Source of the DNA: Patescibacteria group bacterium
GTDB lineage: Bacteria > Patescibacteriota > Minisyncoccia > Phycocordibacterales > DATDWN01
Assembly (NCBI GenBank): GCA_040384485.1
Contig: JAZKJH010000002.1
Span: forward strand, 231,951 to 295,950
Direction: 5' to 3'
Length of the DNA stretch: 64,000 bases
In this document: positions 12,726 through 52,934 of the stretch, one piece after another
Layout: each line of letters opens with the position of its first letter
Position numbering within the stretch: the first letter of the stretch is position 1
Program-made: the position numbers and the translations under genes
The notes under the pieces: model-generated
What the model was told of the DNA's origin: nothing
The model's database searches: none
What the model saw: only the letters and a program-made list of their open reading frames with translations

Positions 12726-13445
12726 TTGGAGGTGCTCGTGGAGTATCGAGAAGTATTCAAAAAAAGACACACCTTTTTTCCTGTGATTCATGTCGAAACT
12801 GAAAACCAGGCTATTCGAAATACAAAAATTGCAGAGGAAAACGGTGCTGATGGAGTGTTCCTTATTAACCACCGAATTTCCCACAAGGAGTTGCAAAAAG
12901 TATACCTAGCGGTCAGAAACCAGTTTCCAAAATTTTGGATTGGTTTGAATTTTCTTGACCTGCAGCGTGAACATGCCTTGGCACTAATGCCAAGGGATGC
13001 AAACGCTCTCTGGGCTGACGACGGCGGAGTTCATGAAGCTCCTACAAAAGGCCTCGCGCCCAGGCACGGCGAAGCCAAACACTTTTCCAAACTTTTGGAT
13101 AGATCGAGATGGAAAGGTTTGTATTTTGGAGGTGTAGCTTTCAAGACGCAGAAACATGCGAACGAACCCGCCTTGCTGGCAAGATATGCCACAGCCTTTA
13201 TGGATGTGGTGACAACAAGCGGCGTATCGACTGGCAGAGCCCCTGATCACGAAAAAATTCGGGAAATGAAGGACGCTATCGGCCAGCACCCTATCGCTAT
13301 CGCGAGTGGAGTCACACCAGAAAATGTTCTGGGTTACACCCTACACACTGACTGCTTTCTGGTTGCAACAGGAGTGAGCGACTCGTTCACTGAGCTCAAT
13401 CCAAACAGAGTCAGAAAGTTTGCAGATGTTCTTGCAAGTGCCTGA
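12726..13445 (+). CDS. BtpA/SgcQ-family TIM-barrel protein
   Basis: FFPVIHVE, DGVFLINH and IASGVTPENV motifs are typical of the BtpA family. Confidence 0.6.
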   Translation: MEVLVEYREVFKKRHTFFPVIHVETENQAIRNTKIAEENGADGVFLINHRISHKELQKVYLAVRNQFPKFWIGLNFLDLQREHALALMPRDANALWADDGGVHEAPTKGLAPRHGEAKHFSKLLDRSRWKGLYFGGVAFKTQKHANEPALLARYATAFMDVVTTSGVSTGRAPDHEKIREMKDAIGQHPIAIASGVTPENVLGYTLHTDCFLVATGVSDSFTELNPNRVRKFADVLASA

Positions 13446-13448
13446 CAC

Positions 13449-13483
13449 AATCGTCTTTGCCTAACAGCAAAGACGATTTTTTT
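13449..13483 (+). terminator. rho-independent terminator
   Basis: AATCGTCTTTGC-CTAACA-GCAAAGACGATT followed by TTTTTTT. Confidence 0.65.
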
Positions 13484-13493
13484 AAATTTGTAT

Positions 13494-13527
13494 AAAAAAA
13501 TGCCCAGCGAGATTGCTCTCGCTGGGC
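13494..13527 (-). terminator. rho-independent terminator of 13533..14135
   Basis: GCCCAGCGAG-ATTGCT-CTCGCTGGGC preceded by AAAAAAA. Confidence 0.65.
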
Positions 13528-13532
13528 TTGGA

Positions 13533-14135
13533 CTAGTTGGCCATGCCTCGGATTAACATGAAGGGCCAGTTGGCATTGGCGCGTGATGCCAGATCCAAAA
13601 CGGTTTTGTTGGTTTCGCTGGATGTTCTCAGTTCCAACAGCTCTGCATGAACATAGCAAAACATTTCATCGTAATCCTCAGGGAACCCCGAGAATGATGA
13701 AAGGAATGTCAGGTTGTCGCCGAGAACTGGATGATCAACGCCTGGGATGATAATTGCTCCTGCGTACTCACCTGCATCTCTGTTTGCCGACTGACGACTG
13801 GTGAGGTGGCCGTGCGTCTTGTGTTTCCACATGAGACGCAATGCCTTTTCATGAGCATTGTTCTGATACCGGGACCAATCTCCCAGATCCTTCTCGACCC
13901 TGCCGATGAATGACCTGTCGTATGCACTTATCCGGTGATAATGACGACGTCCGTCCAATGGTCTATCTGTGACATACATGTGATGCACGCCACAGTTGCT
14001 TTCGATTCCCTTCTTCGCCATTTCTTTCTTGACGATTTCTGCTGCCTCCAGGGCCTCCCTATGGATACGTGCAGCAAACTGAAGAAAATCACTTCCTTGA
14101 ACTCTCACCTTTAGCATCTTCCCTCCGTTGGACAC
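13533..14135 (-). CDS. hypothetical protein
   Basis: 200-aa ORF. G+C-richer than the surrounding window. No recognisable domain. Confidence 0.5.
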   Translation of the reverse strand: MSNGGKMLKVRVQGSDFLQFAARIHREALEAAEIVKKEMAKKGIESNCGVHHMYVTDRPLDGRRHYHRISAYDRSFIGRVEKDLGDWSRYQNNAHEKALRLMWKHKTHGHLTSRQSANRDAGEYAGAIIIPGVDHPVLGDNLTFLSSFSGFPEDYDEMFCYVHAELLELRTSSETNKTVLDLASRANANWPFMLIRGMAN

Positions 14136-14164: not shown

Positions 14165-14554
14165 TTATGAAGAAAACTCAATATCAAAAGGGTACATTCC
14201 CATCCCACAAGAACCAGCTAAACTTCCCTGATCAGACTGTCCGATGTTTATATCTGTTGAACCATTTTGATTAAGTGTTTGATTAATACCCAGGGATGGA
14301 ATAGAAACAATGAGTGAGCAATCAAAAGTGTTTTTAGTATTGAAGCGAACTATGGTAGGAAGTCCTGCTTTAGCATAACTTGTTCCGGGTTTATATCCCC
14401 CCTTTGCGTCTATTTCTATTATTTGAACACCGTCAACAATGCTGACATTGTTTACAGGCACTTCTACCTCTCGTGGTTTATTTAAAACTAGGATTATAGA
14501 AATACCGACCAGAGTGGAGGCTACTATTATAGAAATTAAATTTGCTTTATTCAT
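14165..14554 (-). CDS. small secreted protein, possibly a metal-binding partner of the transporter
   Basis: Signal/TM segment (LISIIVASTLVGISIILV). Contains Cys residues and a CGMGMY motif. Directly downstream of the HMA gene. Confidence 0.5.
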   Translation of the reverse strand: MNKANLISIIVASTLVGISIILVLNKPREVEVPVNNVSIVDGVQIIEIDAKGGYKPGTSYAKAGLPTIVRFNTKNTFDCSLIVSIPSLGINQTLNQNGSTDINIGQSDQGSLAGSCGMGMYPFDIEFSS

Positions 14555-14558
14555 GTAA

Positions 14559-15587
14559 TTAAAAATTAAACAATGCTGGTATAAATCCGAAGGCTGCCAG
14601 GGCATTTACTAAATTAAAAGCTGCGAATAAAATAACTATTATTCCTGCTGTTTTGAAAAAGATTCCGGATTTGGAACTATTTCTTATGCTAAACGAACTA
14701 AAACTAAGTAGAGCCAGTACTGGTAAAGTGCCTAGCGCAAAAATCAGCATTGTTACAGCACCGCCCAAAAAACTTCCTGAACTGAGGGTATATAACTGCA
14801 TTGATTGAGTAAATCCACATGGCAAGAAAAAAGTAGCAATCCCTACCAAGACAGGTGTAAAAGTGTGGTTGAATTTTGAAGTTTTGTGAACATGCTTACT
14901 TACAAAAGCCGGCATAGAGGGTTGGATTTTCTTGGCCCAAGGAAATACGTCCAACAAGTTGATGCCAAGCACAAGCATTACGCCGGCAATAACAAGGTTT
15001 AATATAAACGTACTTAAAGCTCCTAGTGTAAAAACTGAACCTAATGCCCCTATTATTCCTCCAAGCATAAAGAAAGAAACCAAACGTCCTGTGTGGAACA
15101 TAAGCTGTGGCCTGACCTGGTCTCCATCTTTTGCAAAAGTGGCCGACATGGACAATAAAAGCCCACCTACAACTGCCATGCAAGTAGAAAGTGAAGCAAC
15201 TATACCTATTAGAAAAACTGTGCCGAGAGTAACCTCATCTCCTCCAACCATGTTTACTATTCCTAACTTTTGAAGAAGAACAAATAAAATCACTAGCCCC
15301 AATGAAATAGGAACTGCCAGTTTAAAGTCATCCCATTTTGTTATATGCTTACTTTTTTCTACAAAAAATGAGTAACCATTATCGTGCAGTAAAGCAGAAA
15401 AATCTTTCGCCAGCTCCTCTTTTGGAACATCTTTAAAGTCACCAACAACTAAAACAGTATGATCACCAAAATCGACTTTTACTGAGTCCACATAAGACAA
15501 ATCCGATAATTCTTTTTCAATAGTTTGACTGCAAGCCTTACAGTTCATTCCCTTTATATGAAAAATGTGTGAAATTTTATTTTCCAA
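14559..15587 (-). CDS. heavy-metal-associated (HMA) domain fused to a multi-pass membrane transporter-like domain (DsbD_2/TauE-like)
   Basis: N-terminal IKGMNCKAC (GMxCxxC). About 7 TM helices with an FLPCGF motif. The start is a TTG at 15587 in the track; a start at the nearby internal M (GMNCKAC) is also possible. Confidence 0.7.
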   Translation of the reverse strand: MENKISHIFHIKGMNCKACSQTIEKELSDLSYVDSVKVDFGDHTVLVVGDFKDVPKEELAKDFSALLHDNGYSFFVEKSKHITKWDDFKLAVPISLGLVILFVLLQKLGIVNMVGGDEVTLGTVFLIGIVASLSTCMAVVGGLLLSMSATFAKDGDQVRPQLMFHTGRLVSFFMLGGIIGALGSVFTLGALSTFILNLVIAGVMLVLGINLLDVFPWAKKIQPSMPAFVSKHVHKTSKFNHTFTPVLVGIATFFLPCGFTQSMQLYTLSSGSFLGGAVTMLIFALGTLPVLALLSFSSFSIRNSSKSGIFFKTAGIIVILFAAFNLVNALAAFGFIPALFNF

Positions 15588-15612
15588 GATAGTTATATTA
15601 TAGCAATTACGT

Positions 15613-15650
15613 AAAATAAAAACCTACAGGCGGATATGCCACCTGTAGGT
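15613..15650 (-). terminator. intrinsic-terminator-like hairpin directly upstream of the HMA transporter gene; possible attenuator
   Basis: ACCTACAGG...CCTGTAGGT preceded by AAAATAAAAA on the plus strand, which gives a U-run after the hairpin on the minus strand. Confidence 0.5.
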
Positions 15651-15812
15651 TCGGTCCGCTTTCGCCCCCACTTTTTTAGAATAGGGGCCAGGTACTGCAG
15701 CCCTCTTTGCAATGGGCCACGGCGCGCAACATGTAGCGCTTCATAAGGAACAACCTTTCTCCTGAAAACAGAATGCCTGCTCAGGGAAAGAGTTTACCCT
15801 TTCTCTGAGCAC
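15651..15812 (-). ncRNA. GC-rich structured leader or small RNA between csoR and the HMA transporter; contains a 22-codon ORF (MKRYMLRAVAHCKEGCSTWPLF)
   Basis: Strongly GC-richer than the surrounding AT-rich sequence. It holds a 14-bp stem (GCUCAGAGAAAGGG / CCCUUUCUCUGAGC, plus 15765..15796) just after the csoR stop. AGGAGAAAGG lies 9-13 nt before the tiny ORF's ATG. I could not match it to a named RNA family. Confidence 0.35.
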
Positions 15813-15816
15813 GAAA

Positions 15817-16086
15817 CTATTTTCTTTTCAATCTATAAACCTTCAATATTTCATCAGCCATTTTACTTCCCTTTCCTTTTTTTACCTGATCCGTTGCACA
15901 ACAGTTGAGATGGTTTTCCATAAGAGCATCCTCTGCACTAGAAAGCGCTCTCTTTACCGCTGAAGTTTGAGTGATTATGTCTATACAATACTTGCCACTT
16001 GCCACCATTCCTTGCAAGGCACGTACCTGTCCCTCTACTATCTTTAGTTGACGGACTATTTGTTCTTTTGTTTTTGGTTTATGCAT
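15817..16086 (-). CDS. csoR: CsoR/RcnR-family metal-sensing transcriptional repressor
   Basis: 89 aa. CIDIITQTSAVKRAL...HLNCC matches the CsoR metal-ligand motifs. Confidence 0.8.
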   Translation of the reverse strand: MHKPKTKEQIVRQLKIVEGQVRALQGMVASGKYCIDIITQTSAVKRALSSAEDALMENHLNCCATDQVKKGKGSKMADEILKVYRLKRK

Positions 16087-16099
16087 TTATTTATATGCT

Positions 16100-16116
16100 A
16101 TACCCCCTGGGGGTAT
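16100..16116. promoter_or_regulatory. CsoR-type operator ATACCCCC-T-GGGGGTAT
   Basis: Perfect 8-bp inverted arms of C/G tracts flanked by AT, 14 bp upstream of the csoR ATG. It resembles known CsoR operators (AT-flanked C/G tracts, from memory). Confidence 0.55.
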
Positions 16117-16158
16117 ATGTCAAATCGAGTTATGCACAAGATATGATAGGATAGATTT

Positions 16159-23290: not shown

Positions 23291-26200
23291 TTATTCCCAA
23301 TTACCATACCATTTTTCGTTACCGTCAGCATCGATTTCCCAGATCACAACTGGAGCGGTAGCGCTGTCGGTACTGTGTATGTTGTAATTGTTAAAATTTG
23401 TCTCACGTTTATCTTTTAAACCTATTTTTTTACATTTTAAAAACCTTTTTCTATATGAATCACTGACTGACTGCCGGTTGGTGGAAGCCATCCCGCGGGA
23501 GTCCATAGGTATTGCAACTTGTTGACACAGCATTTCCTTCGGAAGACTAGGGTCAGCTTTAATTCTTTCTTCTCTTAGTCGCTTCGCAGTCTCGATAGCC
23601 TCTTTCAGAACACCCTTCACAAAAGTATCGGCATTAACACTTTGAATAAAGTTTTCTGCTGGGTTGTTGGCACGTACAACAAGCACTGGCGTACCGGAAG
23701 ACCTGTTTGCTTGAATAGCCAACACAGAACCTCGTAGCTCTTCGTTTTGCTTACCTCTATTTGTTACATACACCCAAGTCCTAAGGCCTGGATACAGTCC
23801 TTTGGCCATGCTTTCATGTTGCGATGTATGACAAGAGTCCCCTAAATCCCCTGAGTAAATATTCAGTACCCCCGACACTGGCACCATCGATACCGCGACC
23901 TCTTTTTGAGTTTTTCCAGAGTAAACCCCCAAGATCTTGTCTAGTTTGTTTTTTAAAACTGTTATTGGCAAATGACCTGTTTGTTTATCGAGCTGTTGTT
24001 GCCAAGCGAGAGTAAGTTTTTCAAGTAACTCAGGAGAGAAACTCACATGGGATGTATGTTCTGGATCTTGTAAATGGTGAAGATAATGCTCCTCTATATA
24101 ATCTCGCGCAATCTTATGCACTCTGTAGACCATATCTGGGTTTGGAGACCGTCCTTCTTCAGAATCTACTAAACTATCGATCTCATCTCTTGAACCCTCA
24201 TCCATCACAATGCCATACATATGTAAGGCCGAAAAATCTCGTATTTCTTGTACTAAAGGAAGTTTTGCATCGAGTTTGTTCAGTTCTTCCAATACAGCAA
24301 CATAATCCTGGTCTTCCTGACTAGAATTATGAAGTTTTTTATCCAAATTTTTAATCTGCTCAGATGCATCTCTCAAGATATCTGCTTGGCGCTCGATTCC
24401 TTGTCTGCCTTTTGGGCTCTTAAGGGCTTTTAGTTTTTTAGACAGATTTTGTTTCTTTACAGAATCTTCCTCGTCCTCAATCATACTTTCTATATCTTCT
24501 AGTGAACTAGAAAGAAGCTGTCTAATACTGTTTTCCTCCGAAGCTAGCTTGCTCAATAAAGTGTTAAAGAACTGAAATGTTCCATTGCTTGAAGCAAAAT
24601 CGAGAGACTCCATAAGTGGCCCGCAAACATTTTTTAACTCTTGACTGGACATTAGCTCTTCCAAAGCTTTTTCTTGGTCAGGTGTTTTTTCTGATCCACG
24701 ACTCACAACAGAAACCTTGAAGCTTGATTCTTTAAAGCCTACAGGTAACTGAGCCACCTCTGGTTTATTTGTAATTGTTTTCTCCCATGTTGATACAATG
24801 TCTGATAATGCGTGATCTCTCTCAAATTGAGTGGAACCCTTTATCACACTAAACAACTCATCCCCTAATTCAGTTTTAAGTCCATCTGGAATAGTGTCCG
24901 CCAAAAGACTAGTTTTAATCCTTTTTAGGCCTTTGACTAATTCGTTAAACAATTCCAAAGAACTGTTGAACTTCCAAGATCCATCTTTGTTTTTTGCCTT
25001 AACTCCAAACTCTTCACATATACTTATGGTATCAGGACCGATTCTGTCCAGAGTTTTACTCCTATGACAGTCGGCATATACCTTAAACAGTCTCGGCAAG
25101 TTGCTCATTCCCATGGACTCAACAAAACTGACCACCAGCTCCGCATCCTCTGCTTTCTCTATAGAAACTATCTTATGGTCCACCAAATACTTCATTAGTG
25201 GTTTCAACTCTTGTTCCCAAGGATCGTTGGTGACATTAGCAGCGATAGCCTGGATTTTTTGCATTCTAGAAAAAGCATTGACCCACGGGTTGCGTGAAAT
25301 TATCTTGTGTAATTCATTAGCGATTTCGCTTTCTTTGGAAACTTCTTCCGTAAACTTTAGAACAGTGACCACTTTTTTGGGATCACTATACAAATGACTA
25401 TTCATCCAAGTTGAGATACTTTCAGGGTTGAATACTTTACCTGCAGCTTTCTCCCCGCCCATTTTTTCCAACACTAAATAGAAAAGAGTTTTATTTCCAT
25501 GTTTAATCGCTGTGACCAAAATATCTGTTGCGATCCCACTTATAAATTTAGGATCTGGTATTATCTCTTCAAGCTTGAATGCACCTGCTGGGTTCTGACC
25601 GGTGTCGATCAAAGATCTGACTGCATGGCTGGCTATGCGTTTTAATTCCTCTGAACTAAACTCTATTTGCTTGCCGGTTATTTTTTGAATTTTTGCTATT
25701 CGCTCTATGGTTTCGTTAAGACCATAAGCATCAAATGTTGTAAGATATCGAATAGCATAATTCCTAATCGGTATCTCATGTAATGCCCAGTCAATCTTTA
25801 CTTGAGTCAGCTCTTGTATAAGCTTGATAGAATCAGCGTTGCCTCGAAAAAGTCTCTGTACGTAAATGTCTTCAATTACTAGTCCGGTGAATTTCGGCTT
25901 AACTTTCGTTATAGTCTCCCATTCAGAAATATTAGCCTTCGCCCTCTCATATGTAGACTGATTATTAATTGTTGAAACTATAACATTGTATTGCTCCTGA
26001 ACCAGCCCTTCATTATTAGTAAAATCTGGTTCTATGCCTGTCATTTGATATCCGGCAGTGATAAGTTGCTTCATGTCTCTGTAGTTGTTTACAATCCAGG
26101 TTCTATAAGCCAATTGCATTCTTTTCGAATCAATTGTAGGTCGAATATTTGTGATTTTGTAAATTATTTCAGCTTTTTTTAAGCCTCTTGTTCCGTAGTA

Positions 26201-27715
26201 AGTGTCAGTTTCATATGCAGTAGCATTCAGAATGATTTCTGCATACATTTTTTGCACTTCTTTCTCCATTGATTTAAAATCTGGCTCCACACCTGTCAGC
26301 TGAACTAATGTTGGAACGTAATCCTCGGCATACTGAGATGGGTTTGTGAAAGCATCTAAATATTTATTTCTAACCTCCTCTGGGCTTATTTTAAACTTAA
26401 TGCCTGTTAATGAGCAAAGTTTTTTCATCGCCCGGAGTGTTTCCGGATAATATGACGAATACCCAAGTAGGTTTTCTTTATACTTATTTTGCAAGTGTAT
26501 ATCGTACGACTGGTAATCAGGTTTTATGCCTGTTAGTTCTTGCAAAAATGAAAATACTGGTTTTAGATCATCTTCATCATCGGATTTGTGGCAGGATTCT
26601 AGAGCCAAATTCCAGTATGCATACCTTATTAATCCTGGAAACCTTCCACTTTGATTATGTTCTTCTAGTAATTTATTTATTTCTTCCACTCGACGTTTGC
26701 AATCAGGAAGATTAGTACTGTCTGAATAAATAAAAAAATCTGAGAATTCCTTAATACTGTTTTTAAGTTCAATATCAAGAAATCTAAGTTCGTGTATCTC
26801 ATCAACCCCCTTCGGGTCAAGTGGGTCAGGAATACGCATGGGCTCTCTAGAGTATTGCTTTACACTTGAAACAATATAATCGATTGCATCATTAAACTTC
26901 TTTATCTCATTTTCCTCAGTTGTTTTTACCCTGATATTAACAAGTGCTTGAAGAATCGATTCTGCATCAAATATCCTAAGATTCTTAGGGTTTCCACCAG
27001 CCAAATTATAATCTGTTGTCATCTCTATATCAAAAATCTTCTTTAATTTTTCGATATCGTTCACATCGCCGATACGTCCCACTGGTCTATAGATATAGCT
27101 CTTAGTAGATCTATCTTCACTGTTTGCGACAGACTTATGCGCATAAAAATCTAGAACTAACTTCTTGTTTTTGGGTGTAGCCACGAGTTCTACTAACTGG
27201 GAATACCTAAATATTGTAGAGCTATGAGTTACTGGTTGATCCAAATAATCCAAAACATACAAAAGGACTTTAGATCCCTCCTTTCTAAGTTCATTACGTA
27301 ATCTTATAGTTTTTTGTAATGGAGTTTCTTCTATTTGTGGTTCAACCTCAACCTTATGTTCTGGCTGATTTTCCACCTGAGGTACGACTTTAACTTTATC
27401 GTCTTCCAGATTTTCTCCCTCATGTTGCGGATTTAGTTGCTCAAAAGGAACACCATTGTTTTCCTCGTTGTTATCATTGTCATCATCATAGGGAGGATCG
27501 TAGTCATAAAAGTCATCGTCATAATCGTCCTCATCATGGTCTGCTATATAAGGGTCATCCCACACACCCAAACGAACACACTCTTCCACTAGAGCTCTCA
27601 TGCGCTCCATGTCCTCTGGAGAAAGCTTGGCCTCTATTTGTTCCTCTGGTGACTTTCTCAAAGTCTCAACAGCTTCTGCAAGTGATTCCAGGCCCTTAAA
27701 AACCTTTCTTTCCAT
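23291..27715 (-). CDS. giant (1474-aa) cytoplasmic repeat protein A, paralogue of 27801..32000
   Basis: No signal peptide. N-terminal HEAT/PBS-lyase-like repeats (DRSTKSYIYRPVGRIGD). An acidic DDDDFYDYD block. About eight ~45-aa modules around (L/I)TGI(K/E)PD(F/Y). A conserved C-terminal domain with YSGDLGDSCHTSQHESMA. Confidence 0.8.
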   Translation of the reverse strand: MERKVFKGLESLAEAVETLRKSPEEQIEAKLSPEDMERMRALVEECVRLGVWDDPYIADHDEDDYDDDFYDYDPPYDDDNDNNEENNGVPFEQLNPQHEGENLEDDKVKVVPQVENQPEHKVEVEPQIEETPLQKTIRLRNELRKEGSKVLLYVLDYLDQPVTHSSTIFRYSQLVELVATPKNKKLVLDFYAHKSVANSEDRSTKSYIYRPVGRIGDVNDIEKLKKIFDIEMTTDYNLAGGNPKNLRIFDAESILQALVNIRVKTTEENEIKKFNDAIDYIVSSVKQYSREPMRIPDPLDPKGVDEIHELRFLDIELKNSIKEFSDFFIYSDSTNLPDCKRRVEEINKLLEEHNQSGRFPGLIRYAYWNLALESCHKSDDEDDLKPVFSFLQELTGIKPDYQSYDIHLQNKYKENLLGYSSYYPETLRAMKKLCSLTGIKFKISPEEVRNKYLDAFTNPSQYAEDYVPTLVQLTGVEPDFKSMEKEVQKMYAEIILNATAYETDTYYGTRGLKKAEIIYKITNIRPTIDSKRMQLAYRTWIVNNYRDMKQLITAGYQMTGIEPDFTNNEGLVQEQYNVIVSTINNQSTYERAKANISEWETITKVKPKFTGLVIEDIYVQRLFRGNADSIKLIQELTQVKIDWALHEIPIRNYAIRYLTTFDAYGLNETIERIAKIQKITGKQIEFSSEELKRIASHAVRSLIDTGQNPAGAFKLEEIIPDPKFISGIATDILVTAIKHGNKTLFYLVLEKMGGEKAAGKVFNPESISTWMNSHLYSDPKKVVTVLKFTEEVSKESEIANELHKIISRNPWVNAFSRMQKIQAIAANVTNDPWEQELKPLMKYLVDHKIVSIEKAEDAELVVSFVESMGMSNLPRLFKVYADCHRSKTLDRIGPDTISICEEFGVKAKNKDGSWKFNSSLELFNELVKGLKRIKTSLLADTIPDGLKTELGDELFSVIKGSTQFERDHALSDIVSTWEKTITNKPEVAQLPVGFKESSFKVSVVSRGSEKTPDQEKALEELMSSQELKNVCGPLMESLDFASSNGTFQFFNTLLSKLASEENSIRQLLSSSLEDIESMIEDEEDSVKKQNLSKKLKALKSPKGRQGIERQADILRDASEQIKNLDKKLHNSSQEDQDYVAVLEELNKLDAKLPLVQEIRDFSALHMYGIVMDEGSRDEIDSLVDSEEGRSPNPDMVYRVHKIARDYIEEHYLHHLQDPEHTSHVSFSPELLEKLTLAWQQQLDKQTGHLPITVLKNKLDKILGVYSGKTQKEVAVSMVPVSGVLNIYSGDLGDSCHTSQHESMAKGLYPGLRTWVYVTNRGKQNEELRGSVLAIQANRSSGTPVLVVRANNPAENFIQSVNADTFVKGVLKEAIETAKRLREERIKADPSLPKEMLCQQVAIPMDSRGMASTNRQSVSDSYRKRFLKCKKIGLKDKRETNFNNYNIHSTDSATAPVVIWEIDADGNEKWYGNWE

Positions 27716-27800: not shown

Positions 27801-30800
27801 TTACTCCCAATTACCGTGCCATGTTTCCTTCCCGTCTGCATCTATTTCCCAGATCACCACTGTGGCAGTACCGCTACGTAAACTATGAACATCATATCCA
27901 TTAAAGTTTGTCTCTCTAGTACTCTCTAACTCAACCTTTTTACACTCCTTGAATCTTTTTCTGTACACATCATTTACTGGTTGGCGGTTGGTAGATGCCA
28001 TACCTCGTGAGTCCATTGGAATTGTTACTTTTTGACAAAGAAGATGGTTGGGTAGGCTTGGGTTAGATTTGATTCTCTCTGCTCTCAAACGTTTTGCTGT
28101 TTCGACTGCTTGTTTCAACACATCTACCACAAGAGACTCTGATTCAACACTTTGAATAAAGTTTTCTGAAGGATTGTTTGCTCTTACAATAAGGACCGGC
28201 GAACCATCTGGTTCTGTCGCTTGGATAGATAACACCGAACCCTTTAACTCCTCATTCTGCTTACCTCTGTTTGTTACATAGACCCAGGTCCGGAGGTTAG
28301 GATATGACCCGTTCGCCATTGATTCATGCTGATGAGTATGACAAGAGTCACCCAAGTCCCCTGAGTAAATGTGAAGTAGACCAGAAACAGGAACTAGAGA
28401 AACAGAAATCTCCTTTTTAGTTTTTCCAGCATATACTCCTAAAATCTTGTCTATTTTGTTTTTCAAAACAGTGATAGGCAAATGCCCAGTTTGTTTATCA
28501 AGCTGCTGTTGCCACACAAGAGTTAGTTTTTCTAAAAGCTCTGGAGAAAAAGTTTGGTGATTTGTGTGTTCACTGTCCTGCAGGTGATGCAAATAATGCT
28601 CCTCTATATAGTCTCTGGCAATTTTATGTAGCTTATATATATTTTCCGGACTTGGTGATACACCTTCATCAGAATCTACCATGTCAGTCACAGCTACTCT
28701 TTGTGCCCCCTGCATAACCACATCAAACATATGCAATGCAGAAAAATCTCTTATCTCTTTAGTTAAAGGAATTTTTTTATCAAGCTGATTTAATGCTTCT
28801 AGAACGTCCGTGTAGTCCGAATCCTGTGAATGACCTTCATCAAACTTATCCTGCACCTTTACTACCTGATCTACAGAGTCCCGCAAAATATCTGCCTGAT
28901 TCTCTATTCCCAATCTGCCTTTAGGATTTTGTAAGGCTTTAAATTTCTTCGTTAAATTTTGTTTTGATTTTGGATCCTCCTCTTTTTCTATCATGCTCTC
29001 CATTTCTTCTCTGGAGCAGGAAAGAAGTCTTCTAAGAGACGTCTCCTCTTCTTTGAGTTTGGCCACCAAATCAGTGAAAAAATTATAAACTCCTTTTGTA
29101 GCTCCGAACTCGATAGATTTTGCCAGTGGCACGTAAGAATCCACCACTTCCTGACTACTCATTAGTTTTTCTAACTCCACCTCCTGATCCGCAGTTTTTT
29201 CTATTTTGTGACTTAATGCGGGAACTTTAAAAGTAGCTTCCTGGAAACCAGAGGGTAATTTTGCCACTTCTGGATACGCTTCTGCAGTGTTATTCCATAT
29301 ATCAAGAAGCACTGGTAAACTATGACTCCTTTCAAATTGGGTTGAACCTTTTATACGACTAAACAGTTCCTCCCCTAACTCAGTAGTAAGAGCTCCCGGA
29401 ACTTTATCTTCCAGCAAGCCAGTCTGAATACCTTTGAGAATTTTACTTAACTCATTGAACAGCTCCAAAGAACTTTTAAATCTCCAGGATCCGTCTTTGT
29501 TTTTTGTCTTAATGTCACAACCTTCACACACACTGATTGTGAATGCACCTAATTTATCTAAAGTTTTGTTTCTATGACAATCAGCATAAACCTCAAAGAT
29601 TTTGCTCAAATTCTTCATGCCCATAAGCTCAATAAAAGATACCACCAATTCAGCATCTGCAGGATTCTCCATAGAAATTATTCTTTCACCCACAATAAAC
29701 TTCATAAAAGGTTTGAATTCTTTTGTCCATGGGTCATTGGTTACATTTTTTGCCACGGCTTGAACTTTTTCGAGCCTTGTAAAAGCTGACATCCATGGGG
29801 TATGGGAAATTTCTTTATAAATAGAAAATGCTAACTCACTCTTATCAGAATGCTCTTGTAAAAACTTTAGGATAGTAAAACTTTTTCCTGGATCTTCGTG
29901 GAGATTACGGATAGCAATCTCTGACATGCTTTTAATATTAAAATCTACTTTTCTTCCTTTAAGTTGCTTGATTGCCTCCCCAAAAAGGTGGCTGTCGGCA
30001 TATTGAATAGCATGCACCAAAATATTTTCAATAACAGAATTGATAGCCTCCTGATCAGAGAAAATTTCTTGGAATCTAAGGGTGCCGAGTGGGGACATGC
30101 CGTATTCTCGTAAACGTCTTCTATTTGTCGAAATGATTCCAACCATTTCATCCTGTGTAAAATTTATCTTTAATCCCGTTATCTCTTGGACTTGCTTCAC
30201 ACTATCAATAACCTTGTCAAAATCGTATGGGTCATAAACAGTAAGAACATCGAGGCATTTACTCTTTATTTCTTTCTCCCGAGAAGTCCAGCCAATGTCG
30301 ACCCCTGTTAGTGTTTGCAAGGCCATTATTGTCTCGGCCGACCCTCTAAAAAGGTTACGCACATAAATTTCACCTATTATTTTTTCATTGTACTGAGGCT
30401 TAATTTTACAAATTTTCTCCAAATTCTCAATTTGTTTCATTGCCGCAGACAATGAGTCGACACTAATGACTCCTGAAAGGATTCGGCTATATTTATTTTG
30501 GACGTGAGCCTCCGATTTAGAAAAGTCTGGCTCTATTCCAGTAAGCTCATAACCTTTGGTAATTAGGTCAACTACATCTCCTGTACCGTCAAAGAGCCAA
30601 GTTTGGTAACAAAGTTGCATTTGAGAATCCTTAATTTTTGGACGGATTTTTGTTTTTTCATACATCAATTCTGCACATTTAAATCCTGTAGCACCCCAAT
30701 AATCATCGGACTCATAACTGCTGGAATTCATAATTATGCGATCGTAAGATTGCTGAATCTCGGGTTCTAACTTATTAAAGTCGATTTTGCTTTCTGTTAC

Positions 30801-32000
30801 ACTCTCGAGTATTTCCAAATAATCATTTGGATACTTGTGCAGGTTAGCCAAAACATATATATACTTTTCTTTTATGAAATTCGGATCTACCTCGAACTTG
30901 ATTTTAGTTATTGAATACAATTTTTCAATGCACATAAGGTTGTAGTCCTCCACCTCATCACCCGGAAAAAAGTTTTCATCATACATGCCTTGTACCTCAC
31001 TCTTACGAGAAGTGTAGTCCGGTTTCAAGTTGGTAATTGTTTCTAAAAAAGCTATTTGTTCAAAGTATTCGTCACCACGGGAGACACGTTCCGTCATTTT
31101 CCAATAAGCATTTTGTATTAGTTCTGGAAGTAAATCCTCTGCTTTCTCCTCTGCAAGTGCTTTTTTCAAGTTTGTAAAATTAGAAACAGTTCGGGTATTG
31201 TCTATGGCCTGAGACTCAAAATAGCGATTAAACTCTCTAATTAGTTCTGAAGTATTAGGATGGAAAAACTCTGAGCGGAATTCAATATCGGCTTCATGAG
31301 GATCATTTGCATGAGGAGTATAAACTTGGCCTATCTCTCCATTGATATAGTTGATAGCATTATTTATTCTTTCTATATCATGCTCATTCTTTGTGCGCGC
31401 TCGAATATCCACTAAGGCCCGAATAACCAAATCACCATCTAAGGATTTGTAATACTCCTTATCGTATTGCTGGTAGTTCGTAGTGAGAGTAATGTCAAAA
31501 TATTTTTTCAAACCTTCAACATGATCGGCACTACCAATACGGCCCATAATTTCATGAATATATGATTTAGTTGATCTGTCTGGAATAGCAGCAACATCTT
31601 TTTTGCTATAAAACTCAAGAATTTCATCAGCATTTTCTTCTGATGCAGCATACTTCAAAATTTTTGAGTATTTATAGACCTTAAGGTTGTTTACCTCCGG
31701 TCCATCCATGTATTGCAAAATAAGAGGAACTATTTTTCCCCTTTCATCCCTAATCTGCCTACGCAGTTTTACTATTTCTTCATTTCTAGCATCCTGGTCT
31801 TCTTTACGTTTATGACTTAATCCTCGAGTGCTATATACCGAATCCCATACACCTTTTTCCATGCATTCTTCCAAAAGAGCTTCCATACGCTCCATTTCCT
31901 CCGGAGAAAGCTTGGCCTCTATTTGTTCCTCTGGTGACTTTCTCAAAGTCTCAACAGCTTCTGCAAGTGATTCCAGGCCCTTAAAAACCTTTCTTTCCAT
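27801..32000 (-). CDS. giant (1399-aa) cytoplasmic repeat protein B, paralogue of 23291..27715
   Basis: The first 33 aa are identical to A, and the nucleotides at 31900..32003 are essentially identical to 27611..27716. It has the same module series and the same C-terminal domain (YSGDLGDSCHTHQHESMA). Confidence 0.8.
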   Translation of the reverse strand: MERKVFKGLESLAEAVETLRKSPEEQIEAKLSPEEMERMEALLEECMEKGVWDSVYSTRGLSHKRKEDQDARNEEIVKLRRQIRDERGKIVPLILQYMDGPEVNNLKVYKYSKILKYAASEENADEILEFYSKKDVAAIPDRSTKSYIHEIMGRIGSADHVEGLKKYFDITLTTNYQQYDKEYYKSLDGDLVIRALVDIRARTKNEHDIERINNAINYINGEIGQVYTPHANDPHEADIEFRSEFFHPNTSELIREFNRYFESQAIDNTRTVSNFTNLKKALAEEKAEDLLPELIQNAYWKMTERVSRGDEYFEQIAFLETITNLKPDYTSRKSEVQGMYDENFFPGDEVEDYNLMCIEKLYSITKIKFEVDPNFIKEKYIYVLANLHKYPNDYLEILESVTESKIDFNKLEPEIQQSYDRIIMNSSSYESDDYWGATGFKCAELMYEKTKIRPKIKDSQMQLCYQTWLFDGTGDVVDLITKGYELTGIEPDFSKSEAHVQNKYSRILSGVISVDSLSAAMKQIENLEKICKIKPQYNEKIIGEIYVRNLFRGSAETIMALQTLTGVDIGWTSREKEIKSKCLDVLTVYDPYDFDKVIDSVKQVQEITGLKINFTQDEMVGIISTNRRRLREYGMSPLGTLRFQEIFSDQEAINSVIENILVHAIQYADSHLFGEAIKQLKGRKVDFNIKSMSEIAIRNLHEDPGKSFTILKFLQEHSDKSELAFSIYKEISHTPWMSAFTRLEKVQAVAKNVTNDPWTKEFKPFMKFIVGERIISMENPADAELVVSFIELMGMKNLSKIFEVYADCHRNKTLDKLGAFTISVCEGCDIKTKNKDGSWRFKSSLELFNELSKILKGIQTGLLEDKVPGALTTELGEELFSRIKGSTQFERSHSLPVLLDIWNNTAEAYPEVAKLPSGFQEATFKVPALSHKIEKTADQEVELEKLMSSQEVVDSYVPLAKSIEFGATKGVYNFFTDLVAKLKEEETSLRRLLSCSREEMESMIEKEEDPKSKQNLTKKFKALQNPKGRLGIENQADILRDSVDQVVKVQDKFDEGHSQDSDYTDVLEALNQLDKKIPLTKEIRDFSALHMFDVVMQGAQRVAVTDMVDSDEGVSPSPENIYKLHKIARDYIEEHYLHHLQDSEHTNHQTFSPELLEKLTLVWQQQLDKQTGHLPITVLKNKIDKILGVYAGKTKKEISVSLVPVSGLLHIYSGDLGDSCHTHQHESMANGSYPNLRTWVYVTNRGKQNEELKGSVLSIQATEPDGSPVLIVRANNPSENFIQSVESESLVVDVLKQAVETAKRLRAERIKSNPSLPNHLLCQKVTIPMDSRGMASTNRQPVNDVYRKRFKECKKVELESTRETNFNGYDVHSLRSGTATVVIWEIDADGKETWHGNWE

Positions 32001-52823: not shown

Positions 52824-52934
52824 TCTTTCATCACCTCATTTCTAAAAAGAACACTGATCAAACATGATCAAATTTAAAATTTTATAACATATTTAAGCAA
52901 ATTGATCAAACTAATAGTGTGCTAAAATAAAAAT

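Follow-up and report, generated by a model that had tools for sequence, protein, structure and literature searches.

The closest known relatives of the locus examined here are the canonical copper (cop) operons regulated by CsoR, ordered csoR-copA(-copZ), and the csoR-copA-HMA_DsbD2-cupredoxin operons of the Candidate Phyla Radiation (CPR, or Patescibacteria). A 64-kb stretch of a Patescibacteria genome (hereafter the window, to whose positions all coordinates refer) carries a variant of these operons on its minus strand, in the order csoR, a 229-nt spacer (15588-15816), a gene for an HMA-DsbD_2 membrane protein (the transporter gene) and a gene for a cupredoxin-like protein. The variant shares with the canonical operon a CsoR of the Cu-type C-H-C class and a type 2 operator over an autoregulated promoter, and with the CPR operon the downstream HMA-DsbD_2 and cupredoxin genes. 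It differs from the canonical operon in that copA is missing and the spacer, a cassette with a 22-codon open reading frame (ORF) that we call orf22, is found instead, and in that the operon is divided in two by a terminator and a new promoter, leaving the transporter apparently outside CsoR control. We favour, with somewhat better than even confidence, a CsoR-controlled csoR-orf22 bicistron that ends at this terminator and is followed by a separate transporter promoter, in which case the spacer would not be a leader of the transporter gene.

Very short proteins are known from metal regulons, among them MntS (42 amino acids, repressed by MntR, in Escherichia coli), CopZ, and CopA(Z), a chaperone made from the 5′ end of copA. 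Like them, orf22 is a very short ORF predicted to be controlled by a metal sensor, with Cys and His residues that could bind metal, and it sits at the usual position of the HMA-encoding 5′ end of copA. The ferredoxin fold of HMA domains needs more than the 22 residues of its product, which also carries a CxxxC pair in place of CxxC and shows no significant sequence similarity to HMA domains, CopZ or MntS. The spacer also has features of regulatory RNAs. Leader-peptide attenuators (trp, his, tnaC) likewise combine a short ORF that has its own Shine-Dalgarno (SD) sequence with hairpins and an intrinsic terminator ahead of a structural gene, and metal riboswitches (NiCo/czcD, yybP-ykoY Mn and Mg) are GC-rich structured RNAs with a terminator and an adjoining gene for a metal-handling membrane protein. 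CpxQ is a small RNA (sRNA) derived from a 3′ untranslated region (UTR) and shares the terminator of the upstream mRNA; the spacer resembles such sRNAs in lying directly past the stop codon of a regulator gene, in ending at the terminator of that transcript and in having no evident promoter of its own.

orf22 is conserved in a second locus

The spacer has a GC content of 47%, rising to 61% in its best 80-nt stretch and standing at 56.5% in orf22, compared with 39.7% for the whole window; the GC peaks of other internal intergenic regions in the window are 24-54%. An initial annotation of the same sequence had described a long GC-rich gap holding a stem-loop, a ribosome-binding site, a 22-codon Cys-containing ORF and a terminator. 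Each of these five features occurs on the minus strand where it had been placed, and the contrast in GC content drawn by that annotation is borne out by these values. An independent Logan assembly of run SRR26324625 (locus L142) contains an identical spacer, so the spacer is not an artefact of one assembler.

orf22 (15676-15744, minus strand; MKRYMLRAVAHCKEGCSTWPLF) comprises an ATG-initiated frame of 22 codons plus a stop, and encodes a candidate His/Cys microprotein with a C12-x3-C16 pair and His-Cys at residues 11-12. In the program-made list of ORFs the same frame appears as a 25-amino-acid ORF begun at an upstream TTG. A search with the window CsoR reached a JGI contig of 3001 nt (Ga0502760_0097062, here L167) on which csoR is followed by a 245-nt spacer and then by the transporter and cupredoxin genes, again without copA; its CsoR is 75% and its transporter 69% identical to those of the window. 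The orf22 of L167, MKHWMIPSVAHCKEGCSSKPSL, has the same ATG, stop position and 22-codon length, and the 69 nt align without an indel, unlike the flanking non-coding parts of the two spacers. Thirteen of the 22 amino acids are identical, and a core of nine residues, VAHCKEGCS, is the same in both; within this core three nucleotides differ, all of them at synonymous third positions (GTG/GTA, GAG/GAA, GGC/GGT). orf22 is the sole reading frame open in both loci, as a 65-codon frame of the window is interrupted in L167. When the same 19 substitutions were placed randomly, at least as many conserved residues and no stop were obtained in 2.6% of trials (P ~0.026). The tiny ORF singled out by the initial annotation is the best-conserved part of the spacer, and this second, distantly related locus keeps its ribosome-binding site, start, stop, length and core.

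Between the csoR stop and the orf22 stop the two loci are 79% identical at the nucleotide level, compared with 72% for csoR, 69% for the transporter gene and 66% for the cupredoxin gene, and from the orf22 stop to the downstream promoter they are essentially unalignable. The third codon positions of the flanking genes are 38-49% identical, that is, near saturation. Because the 5′ half of the spacer is better conserved than genes in this state, it appears to be under purifying selection, and the spacer is, on this two-locus comparison, an element under selection. Both spacers also contain the conserved DNA motif GCCCATTGCAAAGARGGYTGCAGTA. Across 176 loci (985 kb), neither a scan for the motif nor an nhmmer profile built from the two sequences found orf22 anywhere but in the window, its twin L142 and L167, and a search seeded with the L167 transporter returned nothing above 73% identity. 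Outside the four-gene module the genes of the window and L167 differ, and the gene past the cupredoxin gene is unrelated.

The spacer and the copA slot of related operons

Relatives of the HMA-DsbD_2 protein were collected from GTDB genomes and JGI metagenomes, giving 141 loci, all of CPR/Patescibacteria type and at most 74% identical. Upstream DNA was sufficient in 108 of these loci, and in 84 of the 108 a CopA P1B-type ATPase (~765 amino acids) is encoded directly upstream of the transporter, often overlapping its start, and the transporter has no leader of any kind; csoR also precedes copA in 52 of these 84. csoR adjoins the transporter in none of the 108, the usual CPR order being csoR-copA-HMA_DsbD2-cupredoxin. 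The closest relatives in a collection of 5.8 billion proteins are 70-79% identical and lie in csoR-(DUF305)-copA-transporter-cupredoxin operons, and six further close relatives of the CsoR or transporter all have copA (6/6). No copA was found in the 64-kb window, where the corresponding search returned only an HMA-domain match. Since copA normally fills this slot and the window lacks it, the spacer stands in copA's place, and with L167 included the cassette appears to take the place of copA in at least two CPR lineages.

The spacer bears no recognizable trace of copA: a CopA profile gave negative scores in all six spacer frames, and neither blastx of the spacer nor nhmmer and blastn comparisons with the copA-bearing loci returned a copA match, which rules out a recognizable copA remnant. 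A remnant of some other gene was also rejected. A phmmer search of the 65-amino-acid open frame, the one interrupted in L167, against 1.84 billion representative proteins returned three tandem-repeat translation artefacts only, and five spacer frames, orf22 among them, had no Pfam match at E<=10. These artefacts (P0121-P0123) reached phmmer E values as low as 1.5e-12 by way of translated tandem repeats whose single units are dissimilar by BLASTP, a caution for searches with short queries. A repeat or mobile element was likewise rejected: the spacer has no second copy in the 64-kb window, and blastn against phages and plasmids gave no match. In three pattern scans of viral contigs, matches never extended past the pattern itself.

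The slot after csoR is, judging from the gene content of related loci, evolutionarily plastic. A DUF305 protein or a small membrane protein is encoded between csoR and copA in L093, L009, L032, L020, L096, L022, L026 and L168, a SHOCT-like small membrane protein ahead of the transporter in L005, L011, L065 and L088, and a stand-alone CopZ-like HMA protein ahead of the transporter in L118 and L127. Three loci from CPR metagenome-assembled genomes, L012 (~566-660), L090 and L094, share a structured element of ~95 nt directly past the csoR stop and before copA. It has a core, GGGTACRGATTTTTTGAAGCTTAAAAAATYCTGAAGTTCTC.GCTCGACAGCCTCGAAACCCCC, surrounded by an inverted repeat of ~15 bp (for example, ATAGATATTTTGGG...CCCCCAAAATATCTAT), is unrelated in sequence to the window spacer and has no Rfam match at gathering score; it could be a miniature inverted-repeat transposable element, or a second regulatory RNA or operator.

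Transcription and translation signals around orf22

csoR (15817-16086, minus strand; PF02583, E 1.8e-22) encodes 89 amino acids, and its translation contains C34/H59/C63, a Cu(I)-type C-H-C ligand set. The corresponding ligands of Mycobacterium tuberculosis CsoR are C36/H61/C65, with the same spacing of 25 and 4 residues. The predicted csoR promoter (16095-16123, minus strand; 10/12 matches in a promoter scan) consists of a -35 box TTGACA (16123-16118), a 17-nt gap and a -10 box TAGCAT (16100-16095). The csoR ATG follows this -10 box by 8 nt, so the csoR mRNA is probably leaderless. Between the two boxes lies a predicted CsoR operator (16101-16115), the perfect palindrome TAC-CCCCAGGGG-GTA (TACCCCCAGGGGGTA), which conforms to the type 2 consensus TAC-X9-GTA with G/C tracts (PMC3902906). 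It is the one exact match to the operator pattern in 64 kb, and the scan found no second CsoR box ahead of the transporter. L167 shares this promoter-operator design, with its CsoR box at 419-437 of the contig. The csoR promoter is thus predicted to be under CsoR control in both loci, through an operator that overlaps it, and we infer from this arrangement that it is induced by copper.

Beginning 5 nt past the csoR stop, an intercistronic stem-loop (hairpin 1; 15778-15811, minus strand; 7+7 bp) folds with -19 kcal/mol (z -4.8; 0/200 shuffles as good). It is 91% identical in nucleotide sequence to its L167 counterpart, in which one C-to-U change retains pairing as G.U and the predicted loop is 4 nt longer. 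Further along lies the SD region of orf22 (CAGGAGAAAGG; 15754-15764, minus strand), which is identical in L167. Because the 5′ arm of hairpin 1 (CAGAGAAAGGG) nearly copies this ribosome site, its 3′ arm (CUCUUUCCCUG) amounts to an anti-SD sequence. Pairing of the 3′ arm with the true SD region reaches -15.6 kcal/mol in the window and -14.4 kcal/mol in L167, compared with -7.05+-2.5 kcal/mol for shuffled SD regions, and was matched by 4/500 and 3/500 shuffles, respectively. A triad of SD mimic, anti-SD and SD of this kind may tie orf22 translation to the state of the hairpin, for example, through ribosome traffic at the end of csoR.

The spacer contains two further hairpins. The first (15664-15688, minus strand; 9 bp) holds the orf22 stop in its loop and has a 9-bp counterpart in L167 (GCCCUCACU-CUA-GGUGAGGGC, at 871-891). 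The second belongs to an intrinsic terminator (15611-15652, hairpin 15652-15620; minus strand only) with a 14-bp stem, a 5-nt loop and the tail UUUUUAUUUU; it folds with -22.9 kcal/mol (z -6.9), and a terminator in the same relative position in L167 has 15 bp and -28.8 kcal/mol (z -6.6). The two terminator stems are almost wholly different in sequence, with a loop-proximal GG..AUAUCC in common. For both hairpins, position rather than sequence has been kept.

The initial annotation had placed this terminator immediately before the transporter start. A predicted extended -10 promoter box, TGCTATAAT (15597-15605, minus strand), intervenes between them: it begins 14 nt beyond the terminator stem, lies 9 nt before the transporter TTG and is accompanied by neither an SD site nor a CsoR box. 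L167 has TGATACAAT 9 nt ahead of its transporter ATG. The extended -10 motif TGNTANAAT occurs 25 times in the window, and nine of these sites lie 6-9 nt before a predicted start codon, against ~0.06 expected by position alone (examples are 63277-63269, 40700-40692, 39608-39600, 35527-35519, 20213-20205 and 52920-52928). Many genes in the window lack an SD site and others have a clear GGAGG; taken with the placement of the motif, this indicates that leaderless or near-leaderless mRNAs are apparently common in this genome. The HMA-DsbD_2 gene accordingly appears to be served, past the terminator, by a leaderless-type promoter of its own.

The gene that this promoter would serve (14559-15587, minus strand) encodes a TauE/SafE-like membrane protein of 342 amino acids counted from the TTG, with an N-terminal HMA domain (PF00403) and a DsbD_2 domain (PF13386). 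Its relatives align from residue 1, supporting the TTG at 15587; the NCBI and Logan calls begin the gene at an internal ATG (329 amino acids, MNCKAC...), losing the first HMA beta-strand. The cupredoxin-like gene (14165-14554, minus strand; PF13473, E 1.5e-5) is the last conserved gene of the module and is found 3′ of the transporter in nearly all related loci.

From these signals we propose the following scheme. Transcription would start at the CsoR-repressed promoter, whose box and operator are seen in the sequence, when copper frees CsoR, and the transcript would cover csoR, hairpin 1, the ribosome-binding site and orf22 before ending at the strong intrinsic terminator. The 3′ arm of hairpin 1 would pair either with its own 5′ arm or with the orf22 SD, a conserved complementarity that may tune orf22 translation. 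Past the terminator, the extended -10 promoter would give a near-leaderless mRNA for the HMA-DsbD_2 and cupredoxin proteins; because this separate promoter has no second operator, the two genes would be uncoupled from CsoR. orf22 itself we consider somewhat more likely than not to be translated.

Tests for attenuation and known RNAs

According to the initial annotation, the spacer might be a leader-peptide or riboswitch-type attenuator gating the transporter. Translation of orf22, or metal binding, would then set terminator formation and so gate read-through. Such a mechanism finds some encouragement in the order of SD, short ORF, stop-codon hairpin and terminator, which is the same at two loci, in the potentially metal-binding His/Cys residues of orf22 and in the CsoR control of the transporter in the ancestral operon. 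However, no mutually exclusive antiterminator above chance was found in either locus. The best pairing with the 5′ arm of the terminator is -16.4 kcal/mol in the window (shuffles -14.6+-2.4; 108/500 as good) and -11.9 kcal/mol in L167 (-12.8+-2.4; 312/500 as good), and an antiterminator or riboswitch expression platform was rejected on this basis. Compared with trp, his and tnaC, orf22 has no regulatory codon run (its two Cys codons lie four positions apart), it sits 3′ of the csoR gene rather than straight after a promoter, and the conserved extended -10 box lies between terminator and structural gene. The orf22 stop precedes the terminator stem by 23 nt, a distance greater than the ribosome footprint, so the terminator is beyond the reach of a terminating ribosome. 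Read-through RNA of the transporter would probably be poorly translated, because the transporter start would be internal and has no SD site.

Known RNA families gave equally little. Rfam 15, which includes the NiCo, yybP-ykoY and Mg families, had no match at gathering score to the window or L167 spacer, in agreement with the initial annotation, which could assign no known family. At E<=10 both spacers returned hairpin-type chance matches only (miRNA precursors; antisense_SR1, which scores 20.6 bits where its gathering score is 45). In contrast to metal riboswitches, therefore, the spacer matches no such covariance model at E<=10, its core fold is not conserved and no expression platform competes with the terminator. 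ARAGORN found neither tRNA nor tmRNA in the spacer.

Weighing of the alternatives

Several observations weigh against a csoR-orf22 bicistron with a translated orf22. The coding signal comes from two independent sequences only and is hence modest. Differences at codon positions 1, 2 and 3 of orf22 number 5, 6 and 8, a weak third-position excess, and 3 of the 13 codons for identical residues differ, compared with about half in the flanking genes; this scarcity of synonymous differences hints at extra RNA-level constraint or at small-sample noise. The distance from SD to ATG is long in the window (14 nt from GGAG, 9 nt from AAGG), where SD-bearing genes elsewhere have GGAGG 4-8 nt ahead of the start. 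The peptide has no detectable relative in Pfam or in HMA/CopZ profile comparisons, and profiles of the CopA and transporter N-termini, which would register similarity to the HMA metal-binding loop, score it at -4.6 to +1.1 bits, equalled by 69-692 of 1000 shuffles. Downstream, a TTG start is unusual for a leaderless mRNA. Finally, the L167 CsoR is 85% identical to that of the copA-bearing L168 and 75% identical to that of the window, so the cassette may have been spread through recombination, or a lost copA may later have been regained.

The alternative that survives best, although we think it unlikely, is that the spacer functions as RNA, with an ORF that is merely incidental. It would then be a structured csoR 3′ UTR or a 3′-UTR-derived sRNA, with a processing site at or close to hairpin 1 and a 3′ end at the shared terminator. 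On the transcribed strand the whole spacer has a strong fold (window z -5.75, most of this signal coming from the two long hairpins; L167 z -8.8), and the 123-nt core of the window spacer folds better on the transcribed strand (z -2.1) than on the opposite one (-0.2). At the nucleotide level the element is better conserved than the flanking genes, above all in hairpin 1; the GC content of orf22 is 13-17 percentage points above local background in window and L167 alike; and the few synonymous differences within orf22 would also fit. However, the multibranch core fold, of marginal stability (z ~-2), is not common to the two loci, and the L167 core lacks strand asymmetry. Conservation instead tracks the ORF, in its start, stop, length, freedom from indels and synonymous-only core changes, and the non-ORF 3′ half is unalignable. 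No Rfam family matches and no promoter is evident ahead of the element; unlike CpxQ-type sRNAs, the spacer holds a conserved ORF that has an SD site and could be translated. An independent sRNA, as raised in the initial annotation, or a 3′-UTR-derived one is a weaker reading than the coding one.

Improbable, in our view, is a non-functional scar of copA loss, in which a decaying copA stub or foreign GC-rich DNA would have left a fortuitous ORF and hairpins. The spacer does lie exactly in the copA position of related operons, the His-Cys pair of its ORF (residues 11-12) is in the register seen in HMA N-termini of CopA/CopZ-like proteins, and foreign-looking GC-rich genes adjoin the operon (12984-14135). 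Against this stand the negative CopA profile in six frames and the non-significant N-terminal HMA profile, the lack of nhmmer or blastn matches to copA-bearing loci, the lack of a real homologue of the longest open frame among 1.84 billion representative proteins, and a 5′ half that outconserves the neighbouring genes despite their near-saturated synonymous sites, which is not neutral behaviour. A narrower form, in which orf22 is a truncated HMA N-terminus, was also rejected: the His-Cys register agrees, but the profile scores are not significant and the Cys spacing is that of CxxxC instead of CxxC. Given the predicted separate promoter and the missing antiterminator, an attenuator that gates the transporter is very improbable.

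A candidate copper peptide

If csoR and orf22 do form a bicistron, the function of the peptide is a matter of conjecture. We would guess at a small peptide that binds Cu(I) or handles copper in the cytoplasm, made upon release of CsoR in lineages whose operon has lost copA, the roles we consider most likely being Cu(I) buffering or hand-over to the neighbouring HMA domain. In its fullest form, orf22 would encode an undescribed 22-residue His/Cys peptide, CsoR-controlled and copper-induced, that binds Cu(I) or passes it on, one possible recipient being the HMA domain of the neighbouring DsbD_2 protein, with translation set by the hairpin 1 triad, and would provide a minimal copper route for Patescibacteria without copA. 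We put this forward tentatively, and as a whole it is doubtful.

Were orf22 translated, its product would be among the smallest metal-regulon proteins proposed and a rare candidate microprotein from uncultivated CPR bacteria. Gene callers pass over ORFs of fewer than 30 codons, and neither the JGI nor the Logan annotation calls orf22. The locus would also illustrate how a compact copper operon can be rewired, through loss of the ATPase, insertion of a terminator and of a leaderless-type promoter, and release of the membrane protein from control by the sensor. GC-rich islands in the AT-rich intergenic regions of CPR genomes can mark tiny genes rather than riboswitches, and before a spacer within an apparent operon is taken for a leader, an internal promoter should be looked for.

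Other features of the window

Just downstream of the cupredoxin gene, positions 12984-14135 form a GC-rich island (~50% versus 38%) with an ORF of 200 amino acids unmatched in Pfam (13533-14135, minus strand) and a weakly BtpA-like ORF (12726-13445, plus strand). The island looks like foreign DNA, and the L167 gene at the same position is unrelated. Two tandem paralogous giant genes lie on the minus strand at 23291-27715 and 27801-32000 (1474 and 1399 amino acids); their upstream regions are near-identical, and their repeats are offset by 4510 and 4285 nt. Positions 1-258 are 57% GC, with no long ORF covering them and no Rfam match at gathering score, and may be a gene end or an RNA that the edge of the window truncates.

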